Below, piece by piece: positions 2,662-42,757 of a stretch of DNA of 44,831 nucleotides. Under the pieces are notes generated by a model, which searched no databases, was not told the DNA's origin, and worked only from the letters and a program-made list of their open reading frames with translations. Where the stretch lies: contig JADLGZ010000018.1 of NCBI GenBank assembly GCA_020849075.1, positions 1 through 44,831 on the forward strand. Direction: 5' to 3'. How positions within the stretch are numbered: the first letter of the stretch is position 1; the number at the start of each line of letters is the position of its first letter. This stretch comes from Fimbriimonadaceae bacterium. Lineage in GTDB: Bacteria > Armatimonadota > Fimbriimonadia > Fimbriimonadales > Fimbriimonadaceae. A program made the translations under genes and the position numbers.

Positions 2662-2715
2662 ACCCCTATTGTGACAGGCCCAGCCAAAGTCCTTGGGGGT
2701 ATCCTCTAGCCTCAG

Positions 2716-2791
2716 GCGCTCGTAGCTCAGTGGATAGAGCATCAGCTTGCGGAGCTGGGGGTCGGAGGTTCGAATCCTCTCGAGCGCGCCA
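2716..2791 (+). tRNA. tRNA-Arg, anticodon read as GCG
   Basis: Hand-folded cloverleaf. Acceptor GCGCTCG/CGAGCGC, D arm GCTC-AGTGGATA-GAGC, anticodon arm TCAGC-TTGCGGA-GCTGG, variable loop GGGTC, T arm GGAGG-TTCGAAT-CCTCT, discriminator G, encoded CCA. Body resembles bacterial Arg tRNAs; G at position 37. Confidence 0.85.
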
Positions 2792-2843
2792 AAACTGGCA
2801 GAATTGATTTGGGTTTGGCACGAACTTTTCGTATACTGTAGCC

Positions 2844-9192: not shown

Positions 9193-9307
9193 AGAATTTC
9201 CTCGTTGAAAGGTGCAACACGAAACTGCGTGTCGCACCTATAGGATACGACACTCAGGCTAAGAGTGGGCTACTGGGATCAGATAATCAGGGGGCCAACA
9301 ATTACAA

Positions 9308-11610: not shown

Positions 11611-11645
11611 TGTGTTAATAACCTTTCCGCTGATTGGGACGGCTC

Positions 11646-13563: not shown

Positions 13564-13618
13564 CACTTCCTTGTACCCGATGCGCCACCACACGAGAGAA
13601 TCGCGTATTCTGGAACAC

Positions 13619-14482
13619 ATGCTTGCCGCCACCCTTTCCGCGGCCATTGCCATGGCGCAACCTAACCTTGACCAGATATGCCCAAGCGCCTTTGTGGCAG
13701 CAAAGACCAGCCTTCCGGCGGAGAAGCTTGACATAGGGGATATCTCCATCACTGTCATGCAGAGGGAAGGACAGAAGTGGCAAGTCGGCGGCTTTGAGCA
13801 AGACACGCCCATGTACCCAGCAAGCGTGGTGAAGCTCTTCTGGCTTGCGTTCGCTCATCACTCGGTCAAGAAGTGGTCGGATGAAGACCTGAGAGCGGCG
13901 CGAGAGATGATTGTAGATAGTAACAATGATGCAACGGGGCACATCGTGAATCTTTCAACCGGTGCCCTTCCGGGCCCGGAACTTCAGGGGAAGGAGTTTG
14001 ATAAGTGGTCGTTTCAACGACATGCCGCCAACCGGTGGTTTAAGTCCCTTGGCTACGAGAAGATCAACGTCTTAAACCGAACGTACAACGAGGGACCCTT
14101 CGGTCGAGAAGCGCAGATCATCAAGACCTCTGGACGAAATAGCCTCACCACCCGAGCCACCGCTCTCCTCATGAGCCGATTTGCCGATGATCAGGTTGAA
14201 CCCCAGCGATCTATTAAGTCGATGCGGCAGTTCCTGAAAAGGGACATTAACTCTGCCGATGAGCAGGTTAAGGGTTACCTTGGCGGCATAATGCCCGCCG
14301 GAACCCAACATTGGTCGAAGGCAGGCTGGACGAGCGAAGTCAAGCACGATGTCAGCCACGACATCATGCCAGACGGTCGGCAATTTGTGTTTTGCATTTT
14401 CACGAAACGACCGGACAGCGAGGTCCTTATCCACGTTATCGGACGAGAACTGTTGAAGGGACTCGGCTATCCAACCAGATAG
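13619..14482 (+). CDS. Secreted serine hydrolase, class A beta-lactamase-like
   Basis: Start set at MLAATLSAAIAMAQP (signal peptide). S-x-x-K motif in PASVVKLFW. About 290 aa, compatible with beta-lactamase class A-related proteins. Confidence 0.55.
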   Translation: MLAATLSAAIAMAQPNLDQICPSAFVAAKTSLPAEKLDIGDISITVMQREGQKWQVGGFEQDTPMYPASVVKLFWLAFAHHSVKKWSDEDLRAAREMIVDSNNDATGHIVNLSTGALPGPELQGKEFDKWSFQRHAANRWFKSLGYEKINVLNRTYNEGPFGREAQIIKTSGRNSLTTRATALLMSRFADDQVEPQRSIKSMRQFLKRDINSADEQVKGYLGGIMPAGTQHWSKAGWTSEVKHDVSHDIMPDGRQFVFCIFTKRPDSEVLIHVIGRELLKGLGYPTR

Positions 14483-14495
14483 CGTGCTGGGTAGC

Positions 14496-15515
14496 CTAAA
14501 AGTTGTCTTTGGGTACCACCAGCTTCCCGGCCTCAATCTCTTTGCGGGCACTCTCTACCTTTTGCATCGCTTCTGGCGTAACTTTGCCCGCAAGGGCTGG
14601 GTTCATGATGAAATCAATCGCCCCTTCCTTCATTCCGAAGAGTTGGATTCCCCCCTTATGCTTTCCTGCTTTCACCTCTTCTGCAAGGGCAATGAACGCG
14701 GGCTTGGCGACGATCGTTGCCGAAGCCAAGACCGCGCCACTTGAGTTACTGTTCTGGTCCAAGTTTGCGCCGATTGCATATACGCCCTTTTCCTTAGCGG
14801 CATCGAATACTCCTTGCGCGGCTGCATTTGCCTGATGGATGAGCACATCGGCCCCCTGATCAATGGCCGAGAGAGCCGCTTGCTTTGCCGCCTGAATGTC
14901 GGTGTTCATGGCCAAACTCATTCTGATGATTTGAATGTCTGGCTTCACAGACTTCGCGCCGGCTTCGTAAGCCTTAAAGGTACTCACAATCGATGGGATC
15001 GTATCAATTCCTACGGTCGCGATTTTGCCGGTCTTGGTCATTTCCGCCGCCAAAATTCCCGCAAGGTAGAACCCTTGCTCAAGGTAGAACCGAAACGCTC
15101 CCGCATTTCGGGTGAACTTGCCACCACTTGAACTCACAAAGACCGTGTCGGGAAAATCCTTTGATAGCTCGATCGCGGGCTCGTTGTACTCAAACCCATG
15201 GCCAATGATCAGTTGGTAACCGTCTTGGGCAAAGCTGCGCATCGAGTCCTTGATCTTTGCGCCACCCGCAACTTCGTTGGCAATCTTGGCCCCTGTGGCC
15301 GTCTGGATGCCCTTCAGCCCTTCGTAGGCCATCGCGCTCCACCCCGCATCGCTGACTGGACCAGGGGTAATCAAAGCGACCTTAAAGTCCCCAGTTATGG
15401 GCTTCATCGGTTCCGAAATGGCATCCTTTGACGATGCTCGCGTCGAAGGCTCCATTGGCGATGACGAACAACCAACTATTGCGGCAAGAAGGAGAGGAAT
15501 CCAAGCAAATCTCAT
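14496..15515 (-). CDS. BMP-family (Med/PnrA-like) ABC transporter substrate-binding lipoprotein
   Basis: Lipobox in MRFAWIPLLLAAIVGCSSS. Also VALITPGPVSDAGWS, GHGFEY and VGIDTIPS..., typical of basic membrane lipoprotein nucleoside-binding proteins. Confidence 0.8.
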   Translation of the reverse strand: MRFAWIPLLLAAIVGCSSSPMEPSTRASSKDAISEPMKPITGDFKVALITPGPVSDAGWSAMAYEGLKGIQTATGAKIANEVAGGAKIKDSMRSFAQDGYQLIIGHGFEYNEPAIELSKDFPDTVFVSSSGGKFTRNAGAFRFYLEQGFYLAGILAAEMTKTGKIATVGIDTIPSIVSTFKAYEAGAKSVKPDIQIIRMSLAMNTDIQAAKQAALSAIDQGADVLIHQANAAAQGVFDAAKEKGVYAIGANLDQNSNSSGAVLASATIVAKPAFIALAEEVKAGKHKGGIQLFGMKEGAIDFIMNPALAGKVTPEAMQKVESARKEIEAGKLVVPKDNF

Positions 15516-15546
15516 GGCTTAAGCCATGATGCTACCCCGGCCTTGA

Positions 15547-15756
15547 TTACATTTCAGGAAAGGCGATCTCTTCCTCGTCGTTCATAAACCCTGGAAGGAG
15601 CGCGTCCGGCACTGAATAACCTTGGACAATAAAATCATCCTGATTGACGGTGTAGGTCCCAGACTCAAACATATCCGCGCTGAGCGAAATGAATGTCAGC
15701 CCAAATGCTGGCGTTGCCATGATGGCAAGGGTTGCTAATGCGACTATTCTGCCCAT
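15547..15756 (-). CDS. Small acidic secreted hypothetical protein (69 aa)
   Basis: ATG start with a signal-peptide-like MGRIVALATLAIMATPAFG. No recognisable domain; coding status uncertain. Confidence 0.3.
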   Translation of the reverse strand: MGRIVALATLAIMATPAFGLTFISLSADMFESGTYTVNQDDFIVQGYSVPDALLPGFMNDEEEIAFPEM

Positions 15757-15852
15757 TCCTTGAATCTCCTACAACCTTAAGGGACGATCTTAAGATTGCT
15801 AGGGAGCAAGGATTGTTCCAAGAACAGATCCATATCGATGATTTGGGCGAAA

Positions 15853-16341
15853 TTACCTAATAGTGGGTACTCGCTTGTAGCACTCATCCGCTTCGCCAGG
15901 GACCTTCTCTAAGAGCATTTCCTTGGTGTAAATGAAGTCCTTACGTTCGTAATTGGCGAGCTCAAAGTTCTGCCGGAGAACGATCGCTCCAGTGGGGCAG
16001 GCTTCTTGGCAGTACCCGCAAAAGATGCACCTAAGCATGTTGATTTCGTATCGCTTTGCGTAGCGCTCACCTGGGCTGTAGCGCTCCTGATCTGTATTCT
16101 CGTCAGCCTCAACGTAGATGCATCGGGCTGGACATGCCCCCGCACAGAGCGAACAACCAATACACTTTTCCAGCCCCGATTCGTAGCGGACAAGATAGTG
16201 GCGCCAACGAGTACGCGGATACTGCTCTCGTCGCTCGTCCGGGTAACTAATCGTGACCTTCTTGTTCTTCAGGCGACGGGCGGTGATGCCAAATCCAGCC
16301 AAGATTGGCTTGGCGACATCACGCATAAGGTCTAGGCTCAT
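15853..16341 (-). CDS. nuoI: NADH-quinone oxidoreductase subunit I (2x[4Fe-4S] ferredoxin-type)
   Basis: Motifs [12 protein letters not shown] and [12 protein letters not shown] in an NuoI-like context (RYPEE-like [15 protein letters not shown]). The ATG follows the nuoB TAA immediately. Confidence 0.85.
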
Positions 16342-16917
16342 TTAAGCTGAATCCTCCAAGGTGCGTGGCGCGACCTCAATGATACGAAGGTCGCTGAATG
16401 ACGTGGCCTTCTTGCGCTTAATCTTTTCTTGCAACTTCATGACTGCATAAATCAAGGCATCCGGATTGGGTGGGCATCCCGGTACATACACATCAACTGG
16501 CACCACCTGATCTGCCCCTTGAACGATGGCGTAATTGTTGTATACCCCTCCGCTACTTGCGCAGGCACCCATACTGATGACCCATTTGGGTTCTGGCATT
16601 TGATCGTAAATTTGTCGTAGGACAGGAGCCATCTTCTTACTGAGCCGGCCCGCAATAATCATGACATCGGCTTGTCGAGGGGTCGCCCGAAAAGCTTCAC
16701 TCCCGAATCTCGACAGATCAAATCGAGCAGCCACAGTAGACATCATCTCGATGGCGCAGCAGGCGAGGCCAAAGGTGAGGGGCCAAAGCGCATTGGCCCG
16801 CGCTTGGCTCAGTAGCGTCTCGACAGTTGTGACCACCACATTTCCACCCTTCTGGATGTCGCCCAGAATTGGAGTGGAGCTATCGTGGAGAACCACCGTT
16901 TCGATCTTCTTCGGCAT
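16342..16917 (-). CDS. nuoB: NADH-quinone oxidoreductase subunit B
   Basis: Motifs [25 protein letters not shown] and [11 protein letters not shown], the N2 cluster ligand set. Confidence 0.9.
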
Positions 16918-16934
16918 GAGTGTTGAGTCTACCT

Positions 16935-17738
16935 TCAGTCGGAGAGCATCTGAGAGATGGCCGATTTGTCGCCCGATTCGAGGGCCCTGAGGAGTTCCTG
17001 CAGGCGGCCCTCCAAAGCCAAGATGGCTAGCCGGACTTCGTCACGATTGTGCATGAGAACCTGCGCCCAAAGTTCGGGGCTCGTCCCTGTACGGATCGGC
17101 CAATTTGAATCAGAAATATGGGCGAATGACAGGTCCCGCTCCAAACCACCGAGCATGCCAGCAAGCGTCGCTGGAAGGTGGCTCAGCATCGCGAGGTGGC
17201 GGTCGTGGTCCGAAGCCGTCATATGAACTGGGATTGCATCTAGGGCAAAGACCATCTGTTCAATACGCTTGACGGTCGTGTCGTCCGCATCACCTGGAAT
17301 CAATATCCAATGCTGGTCAGCAAAGCAGTGTGGGTTGGGAACCTCACACCCGTGCTGGTGCCCACCGATAAGTGGGTGCCCACCTACAAATCGAGATCTA
17401 AGGCCATCCGGAATACAAGCGTAGATTGACTCTTTGACACTCGTGGTGTCGGTAATCACGGCCCCAGGTTGTGCCAGTGCAGCAATGCGCTCCAGCCATG
17501 GTCCGACACTATCGGGCGGTACGGCTAGGACCCAAATATCAACCACTTGGGCATCTTGAGCAAGGTCAAGACGTCGGGTTATCGAAGCCTGCTGAAGGGC
17601 ACTTGAATCAATATCTTCGCCTACAATCTGCGTAGCAAACCCAGATTCTAAGAGCCCCTTCGCGATGGACGCGCCAATGAACCCGGTGCCGATAACGGCG
17701 ACCGTCAAGCCCTGTTCGTCCACCAAATCAACGGCCAT
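16935..17738 (-). CDS. tyrA: Prephenate/arogenate dehydrogenase
   Basis: Rossmann motif [17 protein letters not shown], followed by GGHPLIGG and ...[14 protein letters not shown], typical of TyrA. Confidence 0.8.
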
Positions 17739-32571: not shown

Positions 32572-33993
32572 ATGAAGGTCCTTTTTGTTTCCGCTGAGGT
32601 CGCTCCATGGGCGAAAGTTGGCGGATTAGCCGATGTTGCCGGATCCCTACCTCAGGCTCTTCGTGGGTTAGGACATGAGGTCCGAGTGCTCATGCCTGCT
32701 TATGGCATGGTGACCAAGGGCAAGGTGCCCGTCAAAACCTTGTCCGTTCGAGTAAACCTCGAAGAGGAGTACAAGGCGAACCTTTTCGAAGTTGACGGGA
32801 TCTGGATGATCAATTGCCCTGAGTTCTTCAGGAATGCTTCTCGATCTGAAGAGATCTATGCCTATGGCCGCGACGCCTATTTGTTCCTGAGCCAAGCCGC
32901 AATTGCCTTATGTGAGGCTTCGGACTGGATCCCGGATATTGTCCATGCAAATGATTGGCATACCGGCTTTGTTCCCGTCATGATTCGCGAAAAAGGTGGG
33001 AAGAAATGGGATCACACGGCCACAATCTTCACCATTCACAACTTGCTTTATCAAGGCACCTTCGGCAAGGATACGATCGAAGCGGCGGGCCTGGATCCAG
33101 ACCTGTTCACCATGGACAAACTGGAAACATGGGGCGGGGTTAATTTCATCAAATCAGCCTGCGTGTATGCTGATATGGTCAGCACGGTGAGCCCGACCTA
33201 CGCGAAGGAAATACAGACCGAAGAATATGGCGCCAGCCTTTGGGGCCTTATGCGCGATCTCCATCAACTTGGCAAGCTCCGCGGCATCCTCAATGGAATT
33301 GACACGGAGGTCTTCAACCCACAAGATGATCCGGCCATCGCCGCCCCTTTTTCGTCGGCTGACTTAGGTGGCAAGGCTAAGTGCAAGATTGCTCTACAAG
33401 GCGAACTTGGGCTTCCCGTCAGCCAAGAGCCACTTTTGGGGGTTGTCAGCCGATTGAGTGATCAGAAGGGGTTTGACCTCATCATCAAACAGGCGTACGG
33501 CATGCTGGGTTTGGGCTGTCAATTCGTCGTGCTCGGTACGGGAGACCCCTGGGCAGCTGATCAATTGAGGCAGTTGGAGAGGGATTGGCAAGACCAGGTT
33601 CGCTTCATTGAGCGATACGACGCTCCACTCGCCCAGCGGATCTATGCGGGCTCGGACATGTTCCTCATGCCCAGCGCATTCGAACCCTGCGGCCTTGGGC
33701 AAATGATCGCATGCCGATACGGCACGGTTCCAATCGTTCGCAAAACAGGGGGACTATCCGACTCCATCCATGATGGAAACAACGGCCTCGTGTTTGAAAA
33801 CAAATCTGCCCGCGAATTGCTCGAGACTATCCGGCGCGGCGTGAGTCTCTACGGAGACAAAGTGAGCTGGCTGGAATTGGTACGCCGATGCATGACCACG
33901 GACTTCAGCTGGACCAAAAGCGCACAAGACGTCATCGCAATGTACGATGACGCCCTGCAAGCTCGGGTCGGGGCAATGGCCGTTAGCCGGTAG
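32572..33993 (+). CDS. glgA: Glycogen (starch) synthase
   Basis: MKVLFVSAEVAPWAKVGGLADVAGSLPQAL (KxGGL motif), HANDWHTGF, and a GT5-type C-terminal half (PSAFEPCGL). Confidence 0.9.
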   Translation: MKVLFVSAEVAPWAKVGGLADVAGSLPQALRGLGHEVRVLMPAYGMVTKGKVPVKTLSVRVNLEEEYKANLFEVDGIWMINCPEFFRNASRSEEIYAYGRDAYLFLSQAAIALCEASDWIPDIVHANDWHTGFVPVMIREKGGKKWDHTATIFTIHNLLYQGTFGKDTIEAAGLDPDLFTMDKLETWGGVNFIKSACVYADMVSTVSPTYAKEIQTEEYGASLWGLMRDLHQLGKLRGILNGIDTEVFNPQDDPAIAAPFSSADLGGKAKCKIALQGELGLPVSQEPLLGVVSRLSDQKGFDLIIKQAYGMLGLGCQFVVLGTGDPWAADQLRQLERDWQDQVRFIERYDAPLAQRIYAGSDMFLMPSAFEPCGLGQMIACRYGTVPIVRKTGGLSDSIHDGNNGLVFENKSARELLETIRRGVSLYGDKVSWLELVRRCMTTDFSWTKSAQDVIAMYDDALQARVGAMAVSR

Positions 33994-33995
33994 CT

Positions 33996-35234
33996 CTATT
34001 CACCCAAGCTTTCCAACTGAGTAGCTTCAGCCTTAGGGATGTCGCTACTCCCGGCCAAGGTCGCTTCGGATTTCTTGTGCTCTGGCGGAGTCTCGAGGAT
34101 GCCCTTGAGTGTCATTAACCCAATCAACAGAATTGCCGCAAAGCCCGACATGATAATCCACTGTCTCTTGGCGGGATGGCGTGATTTGGACCGATCTAAC
34201 CAAGGTAAAGCAAACATGCCAATTGTGATCCCCGTGGGGATAATCACCGTTGCCACGACCTCCCAACCGCTTGGCATGACCTTCAGTAGCTCATATAGCC
34301 CGAGGAAGTACCATTCAGGGCGCGGGCTAAAATCAGTTCCCGTAGGGTCAGCAATCGCTTCTAGCCCTGGGGGCAATGCGACCGCAAGATAGATCAATAG
34401 CCCGACCCCAAAGAGCAGTACAATGGCGTCCTTGAAGAGTTGGTTGGGATAGAAAGGTACCGGGGCCCCTTTTGCGGGAGTTACCGGGCCGGCAATGTGA
34501 TGACGCCTCACCAGGTAGAGGTGGAGGAAAGTAAAGAGAATCAGGCTTGCCGGTAAAAGCATCACGTGGAAGGAATAGAAGCGGGTCAGGGTTAGGGCCC
34601 CCACCTCCTCTCCACCTCGAATGAAGACCAGCAGTGCATGTCCAACGACCGGTATGGTCGCGGCTATGCGGGTTCCAACAACGGTCGCCCAATATGCTTT
34701 TTGATCCCAAGGCAACAGATAACCCGTAAATGAGAAGCCAAGGATCACCTGAAAGATGATCACCCCAACAACCCAAGTCAACTCCCTAGGCTTCTTATAG
34801 GAGCCCCAGAAGAACACCCGGAGCATATGGAGGACCACGGCGATCACAATGACCGTTGAACCCCATGAATGTAGCCCTCGGATGAAGGAGCCTAAGCCAA
34901 CCTCATAGGTAAGGTGCTTTACGCTCGCATGAGCGGAATCTGGACTCGGCGAATAATACATCGCCAAGGCAAAGCCGGTGATGAACTGAAAGACCAAAAG
35001 GGTCATCAGCAGGTTGCCGAGTGTCTGCCACCACCCCACTCCCGCGGGCATTGGCTCGTCTAGGTTCTTCCGAACAAAACCGTACCAGCCGAGTCGCAAA
35101 TCCATCCAGTCGCGAAGCGATGGGCGCTCAATTTGGAGGCGTTCTTCAGACGAAACGGCCTCACGAGGCTCATCTACCTTGACCTCGGGACTGAGGGTTG
35201 GGGCATCCTTGGGTTTGTACGTTTTTTGGCTCAT
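33996..35234 (-). CDS. Cytochrome b (fused b6 + subunit IV-like) of a Rieske/cyt b complex
   Basis: WWQTLGNLLMTLLVFQFITGFALAMYYSP...SFIRGLHSWGSTVIVIAVVLHMLRVFFWGSYKKPRELTWVVGV carries the heme-ligating His pairs. A PEWYF motif lies in the C-terminal half. Confidence 0.85.
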   Translation of the reverse strand: MSQKTYKPKDAPTLSPEVKVDEPREAVSSEERLQIERPSLRDWMDLRLGWYGFVRKNLDEPMPAGVGWWQTLGNLLMTLLVFQFITGFALAMYYSPSPDSAHASVKHLTYEVGLGSFIRGLHSWGSTVIVIAVVLHMLRVFFWGSYKKPRELTWVVGVIIFQVILGFSFTGYLLPWDQKAYWATVVGTRIAATIPVVGHALLVFIRGGEEVGALTLTRFYSFHVMLLPASLILFTFLHLYLVRRHHIAGPVTPAKGAPVPFYPNQLFKDAIVLLFGVGLLIYLAVALPPGLEAIADPTGTDFSPRPEWYFLGLYELLKVMPSGWEVVATVIIPTGITIGMFALPWLDRSKSRHPAKRQWIIMSGFAAILLIGLMTLKGILETPPEHKKSEATLAGSSDIPKAEATQLESLGE

Positions 35235-35237
35235 TGT

Positions 35238-35732
35238 CTAGACCTCTCGAGAAATCCAAATCTTTCCTGCTTCGATCTTTACAGGGTGGCGCTCCAACGG
35301 CTTGGGCGGAGGCCCTGATTTGTTGGTGCCCTCATCGTCGAAAACGCCACCGTGGCAAGGGCATATAAACTTGTGCTGATCAGCGTGATAGTCCACGCGG
35401 CAGCCAAGGTGAGTGCAGGCTGGGTCAATACAGATCACATCCTCCTCACTCCGTCGCAAAAAGACCGTGAACTTCTGTTCTACTTCGTGATAGCCATCAA
35501 CGACGAGTAAGGAATAGTTCACTTCCTTCACTTCGCCGGGCTTGATGCGCGACTCGTCCATCAACTCAACCCAGCGAGACTTCCGCTTGTTACCAAGGGG
35601 GGCAGCCGCAAACCCGACCATGGGGCCAACGATGGCACCGATAAGGCCTAAGTTGATTACTCCAACAACGAGCCCCATCATCTTTCGGCGGGAGATTTCG
35701 ATATTGTCTTGGTTCAGATTATCTTTCGGCAT
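35238..35732 (-). CDS. Rieske [2Fe-2S] subunit
   Basis: CTHLGCRV...CPCHGGVFD motif, plus an N-terminal SRRKMMGLVVGV Tat-type signal anchor. Confidence 0.85.
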   Translation of the reverse strand: MPKDNLNQDNIEISRRKMMGLVVGVINLGLIGAIVGPMVGFAAAPLGNKRKSRWVELMDESRIKPGEVKEVNYSLLVVDGYHEVEQKFTVFLRRSEEDVICIDPACTHLGCRVDYHADQHKFICPCHGGVFDDEGTNKSGPPPKPLERHPVKIEAGKIWISREV

Positions 35733-35744
35733 GTTTCGTATTCC

Positions 35745-36872
35745 TTATGGGTAGTAGCGCATGGTTATCGGGCCATCTTCGCCAAGCTGTTTCATGACAT
35801 CGCTTGCGATCTTCATGGATTTGTGGTGCCGCCCTGGGGATGGCTCGCGCTCAAAGCCCAGCTCCACCCCGCTGGCAACGATGGCTTCGGTGAGTCGAGT
35901 CATTGCGGCAAGGGCTGGCACAACGTACATGTGCTGGAACCGAGTGAACGGCCCGGTGGCGATGAGGAGCGCGACCGCTGCCAGATGCCAGATGTAAATC
36001 GTCATCACAAAGTCGTGAATTCCCATTCGCTTAAGCGCGACCACGAGGAACCCGCTAATGATCACATGCACAAGAAGATTGACAAAGAGGAAATCCTTGC
36101 CGAGCGTTAGCCCGTTATCAATGAACTCATCCTTCTTGTAGCGGTACATCACATAGAAGATCCCTATCAAAACGGCAATCCCTGAAACGACCGGCAAGAG
36201 TTTTAGGGGATGCGTCAATGGCACCTGACCTCGCTGTGGATTCAAGATTGCGATCAGAATGTCAGCTAGCAGGAGGCCACAGAAACCATAGAGGAGTAGC
36301 CCGTGCATGAACCACCGCTTCTTATTGTTCTGCCAAAGAGATCCGACAAAGAAACCGTCTACGATGAGCGACTTCAGGACGACGCCAAAGGATCGCGCCC
36401 ATCCAAACTTCGCTATCGCAGGCTTTAGCTCCTTCAAGCCAGCACACTTCAGCCAGTAGCTGAGTCCTCGAATGGCAAAGACCGTGGCAAAGAGGAAGAC
36501 CACGATAAAGAAGTGGCTCACACTACGTGGCGTCAGAAATTGTCCGACCTTAAATGCAATCGGGATTTCGTCGGGAATCCACGGCTTTGCCTTAACTTCT
36601 TCGTAAACTTGGTCAAGATCTGTATCACTGAGGTCCGCTTCGCTGATGGCGGGCATCATCCCCTTACCATTTCTCACCACTTGCCGGAACGTAGATAGCC
36701 CGACCTTGGTCTGTGCCAATGGTGGCCCCAGGCCGCCCATTGCATTCTGGCCGTGACAGCCCATGCAAGACGTAACTGGATAGACTTCCTTCTTCTTGAG
36801 GTCAGTCTGGGCATAGCTACATGCTACGGCCAGCAAGAGCATGAAGATCGCGACTACTTTTGATAGTTTCAC
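35745..36872 (-). CDS. Fusion protein: periplasmic mono-heme class I cytochrome c domain + NarI-like (nitrate reductase gamma family) di-heme b membrane domain
   Basis: Signal peptide MKLSKVVAIFMLLLAVACSYA, CMGCH heme c site and GMMPA (candidate Met ligand). About 5 TM helices follow, with conserved His residues (FMHG, LVHVI, IWHLA) and GPFTRFQHMYVVP, which resembles the E. coli NarI C-terminal PFTRL(V/I)HIWSAPV. Confidence 0.7.
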   Translation of the reverse strand: MKLSKVVAIFMLLLAVACSYAQTDLKKKEVYPVTSCMGCHGQNAMGGLGPPLAQTKVGLSTFRQVVRNGKGMMPAISEADLSDTDLDQVYEEVKAKPWIPDEIPIAFKVGQFLTPRSVSHFFIVVFLFATVFAIRGLSYWLKCAGLKELKPAIAKFGWARSFGVVLKSLIVDGFFVGSLWQNNKKRWFMHGLLLYGFCGLLLADILIAILNPQRGQVPLTHPLKLLPVVSGIAVLIGIFYVMYRYKKDEFIDNGLTLGKDFLFVNLLVHVIISGFLVVALKRMGIHDFVMTIYIWHLAAVALLIATGPFTRFQHMYVVPALAAMTRLTEAIVASGVELGFEREPSPGRHHKSMKIASDVMKQLGEDGPITMRYYP

Positions 36873-37588
36873 TTTTGACCTCGCTGTGTTCTTTGGGCTT
36901 CTTCTTGCTTGGCATCTCCGATGCCATCCGACTGACCGAGGGTGCTCGGTCGTTGCTCGGCCATGGTTCCGAGATAGCAGCCGGCGGGTTTTGTCTCCGC
37001 CTCGGGAAGGAGGTGGAAGGGCGACCTGCCGGTCTGTTCCTTCTGCTCTTCAATGTAGGTCGAGACATCGCTTTCGGGGTCTTCTAAGTCACCGAAGATG
37101 CGAGCCGTTGTCGGGCATGCAACCACGCAAGCAGGCTGCAGCCCTTGGTCAACCCGGTGCGCGCAATAAGTACACTTGCGCGCTACATTCTCCTTCATGC
37201 GAAGCTTCACAAAGTCCTGTTCATAAGCCTCGTTCTCGTCGAGGTACCACCCTTCTTCCTCGCGGTGAAGGATGATGTTGCCGTAGGGACAAGCCGAGAC
37301 GCAGGCTCCGGTACCTCGACAACGATCCTGATCCACAAGAACGATTCCATCGGGCCGTCGGACAATGGCCTTATTCGGGCAGGATTTGAGGCACGGTGCA
37401 TCGTCGCAGTGGTTGCACAGGACCGGAATGTAGACCCGCTTCACGTCAGGATACGTTCCAGCCTCAACATTTAGGACACGAGCAAAGAAGGTGTCGTAGG
37501 GCGTTCCGTTCTCCTGCTTGCAAGCCAAGGTGCAGGCATCGCAACCAATGCACCGCGTCAGGTCAATGAGCATCGCGAGGCGTGCCAA
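36869..37588 (-). CDS. Iron-sulfur (beta) subunit of a type II DMSO-reductase-family enzyme (short NarH-like)
   Basis: Motifs CIGCDACTLACK, CNHCDDAPCLKSCP and CTYCAHRV...CVVACP. DGIVLVDQDRCRGTGACVSACPY lacks the second Cys (Thr in its place), as NarH has Trp in [23 protein letters not shown]; this predicts a [3Fe-4S] cluster. Confidence 0.8.
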   Translation of the reverse strand: MARLAMLIDLTRCIGCDACTLACKQENGTPYDTFFARVLNVEAGTYPDVKRVYIPVLCNHCDDAPCLKSCPNKAIVRRPDGIVLVDQDRCRGTGACVSACPYGNIILHREEEGWYLDENEAYEQDFVKLRMKENVARKCTYCAHRVDQGLQPACVVACPTTARIFGDLEDPESDVSTYIEEQKEQTGRSPFHLLPEAETKPAGCYLGTMAEQRPSTLGQSDGIGDAKQEEAQRTQRGQK

Positions 37589-37589
37589 C

Positions 37590-40031
37590 TTACTTCACCC
37601 TCCTAACGTCCACGCGAGTGTCCTTCCAGTGCTGCCCGGGCGCATACACCGCCGGGAGGTAATAAACCTCGTGGGTAGGTTTCACCTTTTGATACGTGTG
37701 CACGCTGTGGTACTTTCCAGCCCCGAGATAGCGATCCCACCAGCCATGATCCACACAAACCACACCTGGCTTGATGGCCTCAGTCACAAGGGCCCAGAGT
37801 TCGTAGCTTCCAAACTCATTGAAAACTTCCACCGCTTCCCCGTCTTTGATCCCCCTCATAGCCGCATCCTTGGGATTGATCTCAATGACCGGTTTTCTAT
37901 TGAGATTTCGAAGGAATGGGTTGTTGCAGTGGGTCGAGTGAACACGCCACTTTGAGTGAGGGGTGACGATTGCGAGCGGCATTTCTTGGGCGGATACCGG
38001 AAGGTGCTCAAACGCCCAGTGGTAGGTCGGGACGGTCTCGCCCATCTTCTGGTAGATCTCCTCTTCCTTGTAGAACTCCATACGTCCCGTCTTGAGGAAT
38101 TCCCGCTGGGCCCCTTCGGGGAAGGGGTAGGCACGCGGCGGGAAGAGCTTGTCTTCATGAAGTTGCTCGTCCAGCCCGCATTCGGGGTCGTGGACATTCA
38201 ATCGCACAGGACCCTTCTGCAACATTTCCAGCGTTATGCCTTCAACCTCTTTGCCTCCGCCCTTAAGCATGATTTCGATGGCGTCTTCCTCGGTGTAGTC
38301 CATCTGCTTGGCGAGTTCTGGATCGACTCGTTTTAGGAGTTCTTTCTGAACCCACATCTCCGTGCGGCTCTCGTATTGAGGTTTGACGACCTCCTGCTGG
38401 ATTTGCAGATAGGGATGGCAGCTGGTGCCCACCAAGTCCAATTTCTCCCAGAAGGTCGGAGCCGGCAAGACCACATCCGCGTACTCACAAGTCGGCGTCA
38501 TCGAGAAATCGGTAACCACGAACAGGTCCAGACGGTCAATGGCCTCCTTCATGGGGGCGCTAAACTCCGTGACCAATGGATTGGCGTGGCTCACAAAAAG
38601 GGCCTTGAAACCATCCTTCGGGAACTTGATCTTGGGGTTCATGGTCCCCGTGGGCTGACCGAGCACGAAGTAATGCATCGGCACGCCGTTCGGTCGCTTT
38701 CCATCCGGGAACCACCAAGGGGAGACATCGAGCCGGAAGTGGTGCTGCCCAGAATAGATCGAAACGCTCTCGCCCGGCTTACCATGAGCTCCGACAAGCG
38801 AGGCCAGCAGCAGGATGGCGCGAATCGTCAGGTCGCCGTGCAACCGGTGATTTACACCCATGCCGATGATAATTGAGCTGGGGCGCTCGGTGGCATATCG
38901 TATGGCGACCTGGCGGATGGTGTCGGCTGGAATGTCACAGGTCTTGGCGACATGTTCGGGCGCGTACTCGTCCCGCATGATCTCGTTCTCAAGGAGCTCA
39001 AAGACCGGAGTTACGCTGACCTTCGTGCCATCGCTCAGTTGAACCGTGCGCTGGCCTCGAAAAGCAAACTTGGCGTCCTCGGGCAGCTTCAGCGAATCCA
39101 TCGGAAGTTTGTAAAGAGCATCCTTCCCTTCGTCCCAGACCATGAACTCGGCCTCGGTCCCTTCGCCAACGTCACTGGCGCGGAGCCGCTCGCCCGTATC
39201 CTGCCGAATTAGGGTGCAAACGTCGCTGAACTTTTGCAAAAACGCCCAGTCCACATGGCCTTCCTTCAAGACAACCTGGCACATGGAGAGCGCAAGCGCC
39301 CCGTCCGTTCCCGGATTGACGGGGAGCCACAAATCCGCGCCCTTGGCGGTTTGGCTGGCACGGGGGTCAATCGAGATGATTTGGCAATTGTTTCGCTGCT
39401 TGGCGTGGGTCGTGAGAAACTTCGCGTCGGGGATTCGGGTTTGGAAGATGTTGCTTGACCAAAGAATGGCGGTCTTGCAATGAGCCCAACTTCGGGTCTC
39501 GCACTCCACGCAGTCAATACCTACGGTCTGGGTGAAACCCATCGAAATGTCGCCATTGAAGTCATAAGCCGTGGCGAAAGACATCCCGAGCAAGGCGGCG
39601 GCCCGGACTTGGGCGCCTTTCTGGACATATCCCGTGCCCACCACTTGATTAAAGAGGAGCATGGATTCGGGCCCGTGATCCTTGCTGATGCGCTTCATGT
39701 GGTCGGCGATGTAGTCCAAGACTTCATCCCATCCAACCTCCCGCCATTTGTTTTCCCCGCGCTCGCCGGCGCGGATCAAGGGCTTGTGCACGCGGTCCGG
39801 CCCATAAATAATGTGCGTCATGGACATCCCGCGCAGGCATCCGCGAGGGTTGTATTCCTGGCAGGGATAATCCGCCGCCGGCTTGAGGTCAACGATAACA
39901 TCGTCCACGACGGTGGCGAGCCAGCCGCAGGCTCCCGTGCAATTCGGACTATCGGTGGTGCGAACCACCCGCGCCTTTTCGTTAGGAGCGACCGTTGGTG
40001 CTCGACCCGGAACTTTATGTCTGGTTGCCAT
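37590..40031 (-). CDS. Molybdopterin catalytic (alpha) subunit, NarG-like type II DMSO-reductase family, compact (813 aa), no Tat signal
   Basis: DSPNCTGACGW...NPRGCLRG parallels NarG HGVNCTGSCSW...EPRGCPRG (FS0 cluster). AYDFNGD parallels NarG FYDWYCD (Asp Mo ligand region). LWSSNIFQTRIPDAKF parallels AWGSNVPQTRTPDAHF, and DLWLPVNPGTDGALALSM parallels DLWLAPKQGTDAAMALAM. The N-terminus MATRHKVPGRAPTV... has no RRxFLK motif. Confidence 0.8.
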   Translation of the reverse strand: MATRHKVPGRAPTVAPNEKARVVRTTDSPNCTGACGWLATVVDDVIVDLKPAADYPCQEYNPRGCLRGMSMTHIIYGPDRVHKPLIRAGERGENKWREVGWDEVLDYIADHMKRISKDHGPESMLLFNQVVGTGYVQKGAQVRAAALLGMSFATAYDFNGDISMGFTQTVGIDCVECETRSWAHCKTAILWSSNIFQTRIPDAKFLTTHAKQRNNCQIISIDPRASQTAKGADLWLPVNPGTDGALALSMCQVVLKEGHVDWAFLQKFSDVCTLIRQDTGERLRASDVGEGTEAEFMVWDEGKDALYKLPMDSLKLPEDAKFAFRGQRTVQLSDGTKVSVTPVFELLENEIMRDEYAPEHVAKTCDIPADTIRQVAIRYATERPSSIIIGMGVNHRLHGDLTIRAILLLASLVGAHGKPGESVSIYSGQHHFRLDVSPWWFPDGKRPNGVPMHYFVLGQPTGTMNPKIKFPKDGFKALFVSHANPLVTEFSAPMKEAIDRLDLFVVTDFSMTPTCEYADVVLPAPTFWEKLDLVGTSCHPYLQIQQEVVKPQYESRTEMWVQKELLKRVDPELAKQMDYTEEDAIEIMLKGGGKEVEGITLEMLQKGPVRLNVHDPECGLDEQLHEDKLFPPRAYPFPEGAQREFLKTGRMEFYKEEEIYQKMGETVPTYHWAFEHLPVSAQEMPLAIVTPHSKWRVHSTHCNNPFLRNLNRKPVIEINPKDAAMRGIKDGEAVEVFNEFGSYELWALVTEAIKPGVVCVDHGWWDRYLGAGKYHSVHTYQKVKPTHEVYYLPAVYAPGQHWKDTRVDVRRVK

Positions 40032-40088
40032 GATTCATGCGCACGCCACCCCGTGCTCACATGAATTATCAAACACTTAAATTAAGTT

Positions 40089-40110
40089 CAGTATGATGAT
40101 GATCATACTG
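40089..40110. promoter_or_regulatory. 22-bp palindrome containing an FNR/CRP-family-type box upstream of the molybdoenzyme operon
   Basis: CAGTATGAT-GATG-ATCATACTG has 9-bp perfect arms. The core ATGAT-N4-ATCAT matches TTGAT-N4-ATCAA at 8 of 10 positions. On the minus strand a GATAAT hexamer (40070..40065) lies about 32 bp from the palindrome centre, the class-II (-41.5) geometry. The ATG of the alpha gene is at 40031. Confidence 0.45.
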
Positions 40111-40145
40111 GTAAAAAAACTTGCCAAAGCCCAAAATTGAGTGGG

Positions 40146-41747
40146 CTAGCGATTTCGAAACTTGGTCAGGGCCCGATCAATCGTGGCCGTTTCCGGCATC
40201 CCCATCTTCTTCGTGATCCAGGTGTAGAGGCCCATTCCGAGGAGCCCATAAATCGCCAATCGAGCAAACGACAACAGGTGGCTCCCATGCTGAGCGCCCG
40301 GTCCCCAAGCTAAACAGAGCCCCACCAGCACGATGCACATCGCCAACCCGGCCAAGAGGGTCTGGTCCAGAGCCCGCCCAATCTGACCAACCTCCAAACC
40401 GTTCGCATCCTTGCGCAAGGTAAAGGTCATCAGACAAGCCAAGAAGATCGCCGAAAGCGAACTGGCCAAAGGCAGACCCATATAGGAAAGCGGGGTCGCG
40501 AGGAGCGTATAAGCCAAAACAATAAACACCAGCGTCGTCGCCGTCCCCAAAATAATCGGCTTGACCGTCTTGTGCATCGCAAAATAGCCGCGCATCAGGA
40601 TCGGATGCATGCACCATGCCGGGATGCCGAGGCAGAACAGCCGCAAACAAACCACCATCGCCGTGGGGTCGCTCTTCGCCCCCTTGCCATAACCAAAAAG
40701 CGCATTGACAATGTCGGGCGCCATCACCGCCATGTAGATCGCGATCGGCACGCTCACATACAAAGCGGTGCGCATCGTTTTTACGATCTGCTCGCGGAAC
40801 ATGTCCATCCGTTCCTGGGCGAAAAATTGCGACAAGGCCGGGAAAACCGCGATGGCGAAACTCTGCCCGAAGACGCCCAGCGGCGCCTGCATCAACTTAT
40901 TGGAGAGATCCAGCGAGGTGACGATGCCATTCACAAAGCCGCTCCCGAAATAGCGCATGAGAATCCCGTAAACCCCGGGCAGCGAGAGGCCAAACACCAC
41001 GGGCAACATCAGTACGAACACCTTTTTGACGCCCGGATGCCGAAAATCGAAGTTCGGGCGGAACTCCACGCCGATCTTGCGCATCTCCCATGCCGGGAGT
41101 AGGAGGTTTCCGACGAACGCCCCGATCAACGCGCCCCAAGCCATGCCCGCAATGCCCGGATGCACAAAGTGGGAGAGAATCAATGCCCCCAAAATGATGC
41201 CGATATTGTAAACATTTGGCCCTAAACCTGGAATCGAAAAGCGCTGATGGGCATAAAGCGTCCCAAACATCAACCCGCCCAAGAAAAAGGCGAATTGGGC
41301 CGGGAGGACAATGCGGCTCATCTGCGCGATCATCGGGATGCTCGCGTGCTGCTCGGGCTGCAACGTCAGGCGGAGGAGCGGTTCCGTATACACAAACACC
41401 AAACCGACCATCACGAACAAGGCGGCCGTCATGATCGTGGCCACCGCGCTGAAGATATGCCACGCATCGCGCTTTCGATCTGTGTGCAAGTATTCGGAAT
41501 AAACCGGAATAAAAGCCGAGCTCAGGGCCCCGCCGGCAATGAGAAAGAAGAGGAGATCGGGGATGACAAAGGCGAGCGAATAGGCGTCGGTGAACTGGTT
41601 TCGACCGAACTGGGCGGTCATGATCATGTCGCGCACGATGCCCAAGATCCGGCTGAGCAAGAGGCTGCCCCCCATGATGAGGCTCGCGCGGCCGACGTGG
41701 GGTTTCCCGCCCTGTTCTTCCATGAATCCCACAGGGTACCCGCGCAT
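40146..41747 (-). CDS. murJ: Lipid II flippase MurJ (MOP superfamily)
   Basis: Motifs ...LLLSRILGIVRDMIMTAQFGRNQFTDAYSLAFVIPDLLFFLIAGGALSSAFIPV... and a ~14-TM body. The start could be ATG 41747 or 41723. Confidence 0.85.
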   Translation of the reverse strand: MRGYPVGFMEEQGGKPHVGRASLIMGGSLLLSRILGIVRDMIMTAQFGRNQFTDAYSLAFVIPDLLFFLIAGGALSSAFIPVYSEYLHTDRKRDAWHIFSAVATIMTAALFVMVGLVFVYTEPLLRLTLQPEQHASIPMIAQMSRIVLPAQFAFFLGGLMFGTLYAHQRFSIPGLGPNVYNIGIILGALILSHFVHPGIAGMAWGALIGAFVGNLLLPAWEMRKIGVEFRPNFDFRHPGVKKVFVLMLPVVFGLSLPGVYGILMRYFGSGFVNGIVTSLDLSNKLMQAPLGVFGQSFAIAVFPALSQFFAQERMDMFREQIVKTMRTALYVSVPIAIYMAVMAPDIVNALFGYGKGAKSDPTAMVVCLRLFCLGIPAWCMHPILMRGYFAMHKTVKPIILGTATTLVFIVLAYTLLATPLSYMGLPLASSLSAIFLACLMTFTLRKDANGLEVGQIGRALDQTLLAGLAMCIVLVGLCLAWGPGAQHGSHLLSFARLAIYGLLGMGLYTWITKKMGMPETATIDRALTKFRNR

Positions 41748-41854: not shown

Positions 41855-42757
41855 GTGGCACGCAATAGAGCTGGCTTTGGTGTTTGCGCTTTCATGGACT
41901 CTCTCGGATCATCCGAGCTGTACGTCGAGCTTTCTCAGCAAGGCTTGAAGGGTTATCAGAATCATCTCCGACTAATGACAGGTGAGAGAAAGGGGCTAAG
42001 ATATTACATTGAAGTCGCTCGTGATTCTTATCCTAGCGTCAAGGACATTTCCTTCCAGTTCTTCTCAGATTCAACCTTCCTCTACGCATTTGCGGGCGAC
42101 GAAAAGTCCTTTTCCTACGCGCACGCAGATGTAGTGATTGCGGCAGCCGAAGTCTGCGCACGATACCAAGTTCATCAGCTTGTAAATGGCCGGCTCCTTC
42201 GAGGTGGACTAGCACATGGTGAAATTGTTGCACAAACAAATGCATTGGTCGGTCTTCCAGTCTATCAAGCCGCCGCGATTGAGTCGAGTGCCAAACACCC
42301 CGCGATCGTGCTGGCAAAGCAGGCCGAGCTCTATGTACGTAGCTTGCTAATGTCGGACGACATCAACATCAACGACCAGGACCTCATCACTAAACAGAGG
42401 GCCAAGAGGTCGCACTTGTTTCTTTACCTTGCGGGAGGTCAAATGATCGTTAATCCTTTCGCGGTGTTGAGGCCAACTGCGGACGCTGAACCGGGCCTAC
42501 TTGAGGCTATCCTGAAGCATTGCCATGATTCGATCAAATGGCACCTACTCAAGTTCACGACCGACGAGCGACGTTATTCGAAGTATGCATTCATGCGCGA
42601 CCTCTTCAACTTTCACCTACTGCAGCACACGGAGTATCTGCGGTTCTATCTGGCGCTGCCCGGAAGTGAGACCGCCAGCCAATTCTTCGGCATCGAACAC
42701 TTTCTTGACGAAAATCTAGATCAGCTGGCTACGAAACCTCCTCGCCCTATCAAATAG
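41855..42757 (+). CDS. Hypothetical protein; N-terminal half resembles a class III nucleotidyl cyclase-type palm domain, C-terminal half helical and unassigned
   Basis: GTG start; the alternative ATG 41894 would remove the first motif. By-eye motifs: FGVCAFMDSLGSS (beta1, Asp15), ISFQFFSDSTFLYAF (Asp72) and LLRGGLAHGEIV...GLPVYQAAAIESSAKHPAIVL (Arg116; compare RiGihtG...G..vN.AsRles.a.pg.I.v). Visibly lower GC than neighbours: two 60-nt lines I counted gave 24/60 and 30/60 G+C, against 34/60 for one line in murJ. Confidence 0.5.
   Translation: MARNRAGFGVCAFMDSLGSSELYVELSQQGLKGYQNHLRLMTGERKGLRYYIEVARDSYPSVKDISFQFFSDSTFLYAFAGDEKSFSYAHADVVIAAAEVCARYQVHQLVNGRLLRGGLAHGEIVAQTNALVGLPVYQAAAIESSAKHPAIVLAKQAELYVRSLLMSDDININDQDLITKQRAKRSHLFLYLAGGQMIVNPFAVLRPTADAEPGLLEAILKHCHDSIKWHLLKFTTDERRYSKYAFMRDLFNFHLLQHTEYLRFYLALPGSETASQFFGIEHFLDENLDQLATKPPRPIK

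Follow-up and report, generated by a model that had tools for sequence, protein, structure and literature searches.

Organization and conservation of the operon

We analyzed contig JADLGZ010000018.1 of a Fimbriimonadaceae bacterium (assembly GCA_020849075.1), a 44,831-nt stretch of DNA referred to here as the window, which contains an operon for a compact molybdoenzyme, its membrane anchor, and a Rieske/cytochrome b pair. All five genes are on the minus strand, in the order alpha (positions 37590-40031; 813 amino acids, ATG start), beta (36869-37588; 239 amino acids, TTG start), gamma (35745-36872; 375 amino acids, GTG start, GVG-type), Rieske (35238-35732; 164 amino acids, ATG start), and cytochrome b (33996-35234; 412 amino acids, ATG start). 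The open reading frame (ORF) coordinates in the window put successive genes 1, −4, 12, and 3 nt apart, and there is thus no room for internal promoters or terminators. Upstream of alpha is murJ (40146-41747), on the same strand and separated by 114 nt, and downstream of cytochrome b is the convergent glgA (32572-33993). Among the intergenic gaps, only that between murJ and alpha (40032-40145, minus strand) is long enough to hold a promoter for the operon; it contains one sigma-70-like match at 40127-40099; this is weak evidence, and a promoter and terminator scan was uninformative, with match counts equal to those in shuffled sequence. These coordinates bear out the gene order, the spacings, and the sizes stated in a first-pass annotation made from the sequence alone, and profile searches of all five proteins agree with its labels at the superfamily level.

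To place the operon in its wider context, the five proteins of the window were mapped onto 52 related loci (designated with an L prefix). Beta, gamma, Rieske, and cytochrome b follow alpha in the same order and on the same strand in 35 of the 39 Armatimonadota loci in which 3.6 kb or more of DNA is available downstream of alpha, and shorter contigs have the same genes as far as the contig extends. When loci were instead seeded from cytochrome b, both of those with upstream DNA (L059 and L060) keep the five-gene order; the third, L061, begins at cytochrome b. This degree of synteny excludes chance adjacency and makes the linkage a conserved, class-level trait, such that the conservation in relatives on which the first-pass interpretation depended is borne out. 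We conclude that the five genes are one conserved, tightly packed unit of the Fimbriimonadia (Armatimonadota), carried by soil and wastewater bacteria. Most of the named alpha homologs with 70-88% identity are from metagenome-assembled genomes (MAGs) of Fimbriimonadia or other Armatimonadota, and the range of conservation across the class is similar for cytochrome b and alpha (about 65-85% identity). The window itself shares 99% identity with L001, a contig from a Fimbriimonadaceae MAG. Fimbriimonas ginsengisoli is absent from the named matches of every homolog search run. We note that locus L006 (JADZEW010000030.1), with an alpha 84% identical to that of the window, is binned in a 'Methanoregulaceae archaeon' MAG, almost certainly a binning contamination by a Fimbriimonadia contig.

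The alpha and beta subunits

Alpha contains Molybdopterin, Molydop_binding, and Molybdop_Fe4S4 Pfam domains, and similar MAG proteins are annotated under names such as 'perchlorate reductase' or generic 'molybdopterin oxidoreductase'. Its best family model is TIGR03479 (type II dimethyl sulfoxide [DMSO] reductase alpha), with a score of 484.5 bits that does not reach the cutoff of 984.75; for comparison, the canonical type II member P0125 scores 1145 bits. The NarG equivalog model TIGR01580 gives 231.3 bits in five stretches, also short of its cutoff (1084), and the best PDB matches are PcrA (350 bits), EbdA (228 bits), and NarG (187 bits), with the solved NxrA at 105 bits. No curated NCBIfam model reaches its cutoff with alpha, which thus falls in no characterized clade, as had been supposed.

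When 1.84 billion representatives were scanned in full with HMMER, the alpha clade proved to be isolated, the next relatives being P0121 to P0124 at 49, 41, 38, and 34% identity, all of which have twin-arginine translocation (TAT) signals and none of which is at any curated family cutoff. In a rough neighbor-joining tree that carries no support values, the TAT-less clade with an aspartate in its FS0 iron-sulfur (FeS) cluster motif is sister to P0121 and lies outside canonical type II. (In the DmsA-like lower half of this tree, the 'Mo:D' column probably reflects an alignment artifact and was not used.) The earlier description of alpha and beta as NarG and NarH at two-thirds and half size is therefore superseded by that of a separate, compact type-II-like lineage with P0121 as the nearest relative found for alpha, and with beta nearer to ArrB and PsrB.

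The FS0 motif of alpha, as aligned to PcrA and NarG, is D27-x3-C31-x3-C35 (39927-39953, minus strand) with C65 in NPRGC as the fourth ligand. It reads DSPNCTGACGW ... NPRGC, with Asp rather than His or Cys at the first ligand position, and aligns with the H-x3-C-x3-C of PcrA and NarG. All listed clade members of full length share DSPNCTGACGW unchanged, except P0118 and P0119, which have CTSAC. The predicted molybdenum ligand is Asp161 (39549-39551, minus strand), which is conserved across the clade and lies in YDFNGD, aligned with YDWYGD of PcrA and YDWYCD of NarG. Of the type II hallmarks previously ascribed to alpha, the FS0 motif and the Asp ligand to molybdenum are both present, although the first FS0 ligand departs from the expected His or Cys. 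Alpha also has a His (in GQHH) at a pocket position that differs between two PcrA structures (Trp in 4ydd, Glu in 5e7o) and is Glu in NarG, and its pocket thus matches neither PcrA nor NarG.

Neither alpha nor those inspected homologs that reach the N-terminus have an RR/TAT motif, and the N-terminus MATRHxVPGR (residues 1-10; 40002-40031) is kept across the clade. The two features together indicate that alpha faces the cytoplasm. Although it is not a TAT signal, MATRHxVPGR may, like the N-terminal tail of NarG, be what remains of a chaperone-binding element. Neither the window nor the Armatimonadota flanks examined yielded a NarJ-like gene, and domain searches agree with the first-pass annotation that the operon has no NarJ-type chaperone gene. 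Alpha is thus predicted to be the cytoplasmic catalytic subunit, carrying molybdenum-bis(pyranopterin guanine dinucleotide) (Mo-bisPGD), of an uncharacterized, TAT-less, compact type-II-like DMSO reductase clade.

Beta is a four-cluster ferredoxin (Pfam Fer4_11) with 15 Cys residues that are invariant in its homologs. Its best family match is ArrB (184 bits), and it reaches neither the TIGR03478 cutoff (122.5 bits, cutoff 480.7) nor that of the NarH equivalog TIGR01660 (72.6 bits, cutoff 524); its PDB matches are ArrB (173 bits), PsrB (139 bits), PcrB (106 bits), and NarH (72 bits). As judged from these scores, beta is nearest ArrB and PsrB, not NarH, in both size and overall similarity. In cysteine group III, C90-x2-T93-x2-C96-x3-C100 (37289-37321, minus strand), the alignment has Thr replacing the second Cys, and this Thr is present in 48 of 50 homologs. 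NarH, whose corresponding cluster is 3Fe-4S, has a Trp at the position of Thr93. The missing second Cys was noted at first pass and its consequence is upheld here: the sequence predicts three [4Fe-4S] clusters plus a single [3Fe-4S] cluster, as in NarH and the type II enzymes.

The gamma subunit

Gamma is composed of a signal/anchor helix, a periplasmic monoheme cytochrome c, a five-helix membrane domain of diheme b type, and a cytoplasmic tail. The cytochrome c domain (residues ~23-100; 36573-36806, minus strand) matches Cytochrome_CBB3 with 38.8 bits and is of class I, with a CMGCH heme c motif (36753-36767, minus strand) and a Met ligand in GMMP; all of 67 sequences aligned keep C36, C39, H40, M72, and M73. 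The membrane domain (residues ~113-333; 35874-36536, minus strand) is of the NarI/HdrE/QmoC superfamily, with matches to QmoC (E = 2e-18), TcuB (1.3e-7), and TmcC (4e-5), and its score with Nitrate_red_gam (PF02665) is 18.6 bits, under the cutoff of 22.9. H190, H296, and H314 are invariant in the 67 sequences, and H269, which sits on another helix than H190 and H296/H314, is His in 60 of them. H296 and H314 are 18 residues apart, as are H187 and H205 of NarI. NarI has two His residues on helix 2 and two on helix 5, with H66 being the distal-heme ligand beside the quinol site; the helix 2 equivalent in gamma has a single His (H190), and the +10 position that matches NarI H66 is an invariant leucine (L200). 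The PFTRxxHM tail previously recognized in gamma is present as PFTRFQHM, in which P308 to R311, F312, and H314 are invariant or nearly so.

A confident AlphaFold model of gamma built from 67 homologs (predicted local distance difference test [pLDDT], 85; predicted template modeling score [pTM], 0.71) was used for fold searches. The top Foldseek match is Escherichia coli NarI chain C (probability 1.00, E = 0.047, template modeling [TM] score of 0.44 on NarI); further matches are Mycobacterium smegmatis EtfD and, for the gamma head, small class I cytochromes c. Profile and single-sequence searches of the PDB with gamma did not reach NarI, and their top matches, designed Kelch-repeat proteins, were discarded as spurious; the superfamily link between gamma and NarI is drawn only from the fold search and the QmoC, TcuB, and TmcC models. 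The subthreshold NarI score and the single His on helix 2 place gamma within the NarI superfamily and outside the NarI family proper. The description 'NarI-like' thus holds for the superfamily and for the top fold match, but not at the NarI family threshold or in the helix 2 ligands.

The topology of gamma is fixed by natural fusions. In 32 of the 120 gamma homologs listed, beta and gamma are a single protein of about 610-650 amino acids in which a hydrophobic helix joins the FeS domain to the cytochrome c domain. This arrangement places beta inside and heme c outside, with the five helices then leading to a C-terminal tail inside, and shows that beta and gamma belong to one complex. It also supports the assignment of the operon's only heme c to a periplasmic head of gamma, where its single CxxCH lies. 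Some gamma relatives have two cytochrome c domains. The C-terminal tail (residues 334-375; 35748-35873, minus strand) has the pattern R-E-P-x-P-G-R-H-H-K ... R-Y-Y-P, of which columns R342-K351 and R372-P375 are invariant in 67 Armatimonadota sequences, and it is also found in a Desulfosporosinus gamma. The tail, where model confidence is low, is likely a docking element for beta and alpha. Separately, L021 (4458-5510, minus strand) and two other loci encode a 350-amino acid protein upstream of the operon with a weak Nitrate_red_gam match (22.4 bits), which may be a gamma paralog without the cytochrome c domain.

The Rieske/cytochrome b pair

The Rieske protein matches the Pfam Rieske family, and the b6f and bc1 Rieske models are its best NCBIfam matches. 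It has an RRK TAT-like N-terminus, one anchor helix, and the cluster motifs CTHLGC and CPCHGGVF; the Gly and Phe after CPCH suggest, by comparison with the published Rieske series, a low-potential, menaquinol-type cluster. Cytochrome b has both Cytochrome_B and Cytochrom_B_C domains and is a fusion of a b6-like N-terminal part with a subunit IV-like C-terminal part. It contains H-x13-H in helix B, H-x14-H in helix D, and PEWY, and has no Cys at the heme ci position. For the pair as a whole, Pfam and NCBIfam assignments are in agreement. Homolog searches with cytochrome b return only Fimbriimonadia-type orthologs (65-100% identity).

Gamma contains the sole CxxCH of the operon, and no c1, f, or diheme c gene lies within it, in agreement with the first-pass observation that the Rieske/cytochrome b pair has no cytochrome c gene of its own there. 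Heme c genes do occur near the operon in relatives, coding for planctomycete-type PSCyt proteins, a DUF2231 protein, and one NrfA-like multiheme protein, and these were considered as candidates for the missing cytochrome c1; none is conserved enough.

Gene neighborhoods and substrate

The neighborhoods of related loci are informative as to substrate. About 22 loci have a gene for a NarK-family-like major facilitator superfamily (MFS) transporter in or beside the operon, frequently two of them in tandem, and the transporter matches TIGR00886 with 200 bits, more than 100 bits ahead of other models. A CRP/FNR regulator gene is beside the operon in 17 loci, mostly on the opposite strand, and an NnrS-like gene is present in nine. 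In several relatives, MobA, MoaA, MoaC-MoaB, MoeA, and MoaE-MoeB genes are directly upstream of alpha.

Four more distant loci have the molybdoenzyme genes with no adjacent Rieske/cytochrome b. L053 (alpha 61% identical) has the order Rrf2, NarK-like MFS (166 bits), alpha, beta, and cytochrome c-gamma, with the MFS gene overlapping the start of alpha, and L058 (60%) similarly has an MFS gene (not classified further), alpha, beta, and cytochrome c-gamma. In L057 (61%), alpha, beta, and gamma are next to hemerythrin, DUF2249, and FeS-assembly genes. In Desulfosporosinus (54%), gamma lacks the cytochrome c domain, and the flanking genes encode Hcp, hemerythrin, a TDT anion channel, and a rubrerythrin-like protein. 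Because these outgroups keep alpha, beta, and gamma without Rieske and cytochrome b, the link to Rieske/cytochrome b is a Fimbriimonadia-specific innovation. The Hcp, hemerythrin, DUF2249, and NnrS-like neighbors suggest nitrogen-oxide stress, and the repeated, independent associations as a whole point to nitrate or nitrite as the substrate. The substrate had been considered unreadable from the sequence, a view that the NarK-like, CRP/FNR, NnrS-like, and molybdenum cofactor genes of the relatives lead us to revise: the compact, cytoplasm-facing enzyme is most likely a nitrate reductase, as read from these neighborhoods.

Proposed electron path and alternatives

We propose that the operon encodes one respiratory module for bc complex-dependent nitrate reduction, from menaquinol to nitrate, an interpretation to which we would give an even chance. 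In this module, menaquinol would be oxidized by a Rieske/cytochrome b Q-cycle complex, which would pass electrons to the heme c head of gamma and from there to the gamma b hemes, inward across the membrane. The b hemes would then feed the four FeS clusters of beta, and these in turn FS0 and the molybdenum of alpha, at which nitrate brought in by the NarK-like transporter would be reduced; the cytoplasmic tail of gamma would dock beta and alpha. The required cofactor sites are intact, including Asp161 and the D/C/C/C ligands of FS0 in alpha, the 15 Cys residues of beta, and the CxxCH, Met, and three or four His ligands of gamma. With both a Q cycle and an inward transmembrane electron transfer, about four charges would be moved per two electrons, compared with about two in classical NarGHI, and the wiring could roughly double the energy yield of nitrate respiration. 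Menaquinone has a potential near −75 mV and nitrate/nitrite near +420 mV, a span that on these textbook values should provide enough driving force for about four charges per two electrons.

A hard-wired electron path was already suggested at first pass, and it holds in part. The beta-gamma fusions support a single membrane-spanning wire, whereas the contact and electron transfer between Rieske and the gamma head, together with the direction of electron flow, are what we infer, and the outgroups whose gamma carries cytochrome c have no adjacent Rieske/cytochrome b. A stronger version, in which all five proteins form one obligate 'bc-Nar' supercomplex, with a Rieske/cytochrome b complex that has given up its own cytochrome c1 and uses the gamma heme c as sole acceptor, is tentative and on balance unlikely. 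If it is correct, every electron from menaquinol to nitrate passes the Q cycle and recrosses the membrane, with about four charges moved per two electrons, and nitrate respiration would be more efficient, in a mode of which no bacterial example has yet been described. The gamma heme c may also be a hub feeding oxidases in these aerobes.

Several observations weigh against the proposed module. First, there is no NarK, FNR, NnrS, or molybdenum cofactor gene within the 44.8 kb of the window, the other genes of which have housekeeping roles (aroA, flhA, MATE transporters, etc.), and the NarK-like MFS proteins of the relatives, at 200 and 166 bits, are below the TIGR00886 cutoff of 311.7. Second, four loci (L017, L025, L029, and L051) have unrelated genes after alpha, the products of which include a sialidase-like BNR protein, a protease, a methyltransferase, and a porin; the alpha of L051 is a fragment, and we have treated these loci as rearrangements or assembly joins rather than as evidence against linkage. 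Third, L053 and L058 have a gamma with cytochrome c and no adjacent Rieske/cytochrome b, indicating that the heme c head does not need a neighboring bc complex. Fourth, the Desulfosporosinus gamma without heme c indicates that the ancestral gamma was probably a quinol oxidase, and gamma may still oxidize quinol directly. Lastly, an Armatimonadota genome has been labeled a nitrite oxidizer from annotated 'nxrAB' genes (PMC7814187), which may or may not correspond to alpha and beta.

A rival reading, favored by the third and fourth of these points, is a branch point such as that in Thermus NarCGHI. Gamma would then oxidize menaquinol, and heme c would be an outlet to periplasmic acceptors (nitrite, NO, or N2O reductases, NrfA, or oxidases), with Rieske/cytochrome b being simply coregulated as the complex III of that anaerobic chain and no transfer from Rieske to gamma being obligatory. 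The Desulfosporosinus gamma, with neither heme c head nor Rieske/cytochrome b, indicates that gamma can probably take electrons from quinol, the NarC of Thermus is bound to NarI and has been proposed to supply reductases downstream of it instead of complex III (PMC7694296), and a multiheme NrfA-like gene is near the operon in L040. However, the Thermus cytochrome c route is proposed to replace a repressed complex III, whereas in 35 of 39 loci here the genes of complex III are translationally packed together with those of the molybdoenzyme, and the operon provides this complex III with no separate gene for a cytochrome c partner. Moreover, gamma has its invariant L200 where NarI has the distal-heme ligand H66 beside the quinol site. 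We regard a branch point of this kind as rather unlikely, if worth keeping in mind.

A nitrate-reducing module could also run in reverse, as a Nitrobacter-like nitrite oxidoreductase that acts on nitrite in the cytoplasm and from which electrons leave via the gamma b hemes and heme c to an oxidase, with Rieske/cytochrome b serving reverse flow. Okubo et al. called 'Ca. Nitrosymbiomonas proteolyticus' a nitrite oxidizer on the basis of the nxrAB genes noted above (PMC7814187), the Nitrobacter NXR gene cluster is very similar to that of Thermus and includes a NarC homolog (PMC7694296), a TDT-family anion channel adjoins the Desulfosporosinus homolog, and sequence cannot separate Nar from Nxr (PMC5877337). 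On the other hand, the nitrite-oxidizer label is an annotation only, and the same paper reports no carbon-fixation pathway (PMC7814187), leaving reverse electron flow without an obvious purpose. The CRP/FNR, NnrS-like, and tandem NarK-like neighbors resemble the Thermus nitrate-respiration cluster (PMC7694296), homologs occur in the strictly anaerobic Desulfosporosinus, and the solved NxrA is a distant match to alpha (105 bits), all of which make nitrite oxidation improbable. The direction does matter ecologically: Armatimonadota accounted for ~10% of the community in one anammox reactor (PMC7814187), anammox reactors are also the source of several related MAGs, and whether alpha makes or consumes nitrite alters nitrogen-cycle models of such reactors.

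We consider it decidedly improbable that the same architecture acts on another substrate, for example chlorate, perchlorate, selenate, or some other oxyanion or small molecule, with the MFS protein as its carrier. The nearest solved structure to alpha is indeed the perchlorate reductase PcrA (350 bits), the GQHH His gives a pocket that fits neither PcrA (Trp/Glu) nor NarG (Glu), and alpha and the MFS are both under the curated family cutoffs. Nonetheless, the known type II enzymes for chlorate, perchlorate, selenate, and dimethyl sulfide are periplasmic TAT substrates, unlike the TAT-less clade of the window, and NarK is the best transporter match by more than 100 bits. The neighboring NnrS-like, Hcp, hemerythrin, and DUF2249 genes suggest nitrogen-oxide stress, and for an operon so widespread in soil, sludge, and anammox reactors, a substrate as common as nitrate is a good fit.

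Finally, molybdopterin-fold subunits have become molybdenum-less and structural in alternative complex III (ACIII) and Qrc, and 6btm_B and 6f0k_B are among the PDB matches of beta and QrcB and QrcC among the NCBIfam matches, but it is highly improbable that alpha and beta are likewise cofactor-less relics (as ActB of ACIII or QrcB) on an ordinary bc complex, or that their adjacency is meaningless, given the conserved Asp ligand to molybdenum, FS0 ligands, and 15 beta Cys residues, the MobA and Moa/Moe genes that adjoin the operon in relatives, the alpha-beta-gamma sets without Rieske/cytochrome b in Desulfosporosinus and other outgroups, and a synteny (35 of 39 loci) that excludes chance.

Additional genes near the operon

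Several other genes recur near the operon. A gene for an Alginate_exp-type outer-membrane beta-barrel (PF13372) adjoins it in at least eight relatives (L003, 17317-18438; L059, 674-1843; L060, 8251-9531; and L019, L031, L032, L039, and L046), and the barrel may be an anion porin of the same pathway. A pyridoxal phosphate-dependent decarboxylase of ~640 amino acids (PF00282 plus a tyrosine-decarboxylase C-domain) is encoded after or near cytochrome b in eight relatives (e.g., L010, 14511-16481). A second, shorter molybdopterin paralog (~727-729 amino acids) lies a few kilobases from the operon in L059 (12545-14734), L048, and L020; the L059 copy has a Molybdop_Fe4S4 domain and an MFS gene beside it (11098-12429), and together these look like an assimilatory nitrate reductase with its transporter. 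In L040, genes for a seven-CxxCH protein with a weak NrfA-type Cytochrom_C552 match and for a CcmF_C-like protein (1845-3356 and ~5000-5800) are located upstream of the CRP/FNR gene and the operon, and the NrfA-like gene hints at nitrite ammonification in some relatives.

In L053, a second molybdoenzyme set (12198-17158, minus strand) adjoins the alpha-beta-gamma genes convergently; it consists of a PhsA-like alpha (411 bits), an FeS protein, a 376-amino acid protein without a family match, and a NarJ-like chaperone, and MOSC and MoeA genes are nearby. Elsewhere in the window, ORFs at 4123-7578 and 7822-9237 (minus strand; 1151 and 471 amino acids) and at 2844-4106 and 41855-42757 (plus strand; 420 and 300 amino acids) have no Pfam match at the thresholds used.

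Comparison with known systems

We found no description in the literature searched of a cytoplasmic compact molybdoenzyme with a cytochrome c-anchor fusion and an in-operon Rieske/cytochrome b. The suggestion that this wiring had not been described is thus correct for its exact form, although related wirings have been published (PMC3509893, PMC4683180, PMC7694296, PMC7931247).

The operon shares with E. coli NarGHI (1Q16) the Asp ligand to molybdenum, FS0, a predicted 3Fe-4S cluster in beta, a cytoplasmic active site, and a five-helix, N-out/C-in anchor with PF(S/T)Rx2H and the 18-residue His spacing on its last helix. It differs in the sizes of alpha (813 versus 1247 amino acids) and beta (239 versus 512 amino acids), in missing all three curated family cutoffs, in the first FS0 ligand (Asp, not His), in having one His rather than two on helix 2, in lacking NarJ, and in the additional heme c domain. 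The best sequence matches of the gamma membrane domain are instead with QmoC, HdrE, DsrM, and TcuB, diheme b modules that connect the quinone pool or periplasm with cytoplasmic FeS proteins; their partners, however, are Hdr-like or CCG-domain proteins and no molybdoenzyme, and they have no N-terminal cytochrome c.

Other relatives of alpha differ in location and anchorage. The canonical type II enzymes (Ebd, Ser, Clr, Ddh, and Pcr) are TAT-exported with a soluble heme b gamma, whereas here there is no TAT signal and gamma is an integral membrane protein. In ACIII and Qrc, the molybdenum cofactor ligands are lost and the proteins are periplasmic TAT substrates with an NrfD anchor, as opposed to the retained ligands, absent TAT signal, and NarI-superfamily anchor of this operon. 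The nearest relative found is P0121 (alpha 49% identical), at locus L054, which encodes a TAT-alpha, beta, NrfD, and a NarJ/TorD-like protein. It has a similarly small beta (217 amino acids), the same CTGxC FS0 motif, and the aligned Asp, but is distinguished by TAT export and by genes for an NrfD-type anchor that interacts with quinol and for a chaperone of its own. The compact type-II-like lineage may thus have moved from the periplasmic to the cytoplasmic side by losing its TAT signal and swapping an NrfD anchor for one of the NarI superfamily, and the clade illustrates how a molybdoenzyme may change membrane side.

Coupling of a type-II/Nar molybdoenzyme to Rieske/cytochrome b, with the Q cycle first, is known from archaea. 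In characterized bacterial denitrification, Nar circumvents Rieske/cytochrome b and is fed directly by quinol (Baymann et al., PMC3509893), whereas in haloarchaea the Rieske/cytochrome b genes are clustered with those for Nar (PMC3509893), Rieske/cytochrome b feeds Nar, and growth on nitrate is antimycin-sensitive (PMC3509893, PMC4683180); Methanoperedens has been modeled with Rieske/cytochrome b feeding a pseudoperiplasmic Nar (PMC4683180). These archaeal enzymes are TAT-exported and outward-facing, the link is a periplasmic b-type cytochrome or soluble cytochromes c, and there is no transmembrane electron return; here, alpha and beta are predicted to be cytoplasmic, and electrons would have to recross via gamma. 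The operon would therefore be a genetic counterexample to the bypassing of the bc complex by characterized bacterial Nar enzymes (PMC3509893).

A functional parallel for a cytoplasm-facing Nar that depends in vivo on a Rieske/cytochrome b-type complex is Streptomyces coelicolor Nar1, which copurifies with bcc-aa3 and for which electron input from, or stabilization by, bcc-aa3 has been proposed (PMC7931247). The Streptomyces link is a physiological one between a canonical NarGHI and a complex encoded in a separate operon, rather than one operon with a fused cytochrome c. The question raised by Nar1 (PMC7931247), as to whether a cytoplasmic Nar can receive its electrons from a bc complex, is one for which the operon described here offers a test system.

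In overall layout, the operon resembles that for Thermus thermophilus NarCGHI (narCGHJIKT). Both have a cytoplasm-facing, Asp-type molybdoenzyme on a diheme b anchor that is tightly associated with a periplasmic cytochrome c bound to the membrane, and in both, genes for NarK-type transporters lie within the operon or close to it and a gene for a CRP-family regulator adjoins it; in Thermus, the cytochrome c binds NarI, and the cluster includes NarK, NarT, and the CRP regulator (PMC7694296). The differences lie in the cytochrome c, which is fused to the anchor instead of being a separate NarC and has one heme in the window and two in some relatives, and in the compact alpha and beta of another lineage, with no canonical NarG, NarH, or NarI and no NarJ. 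NarC is proposed to stand in for complex III, whereas here Rieske and cytochrome b are part of the operon itself.

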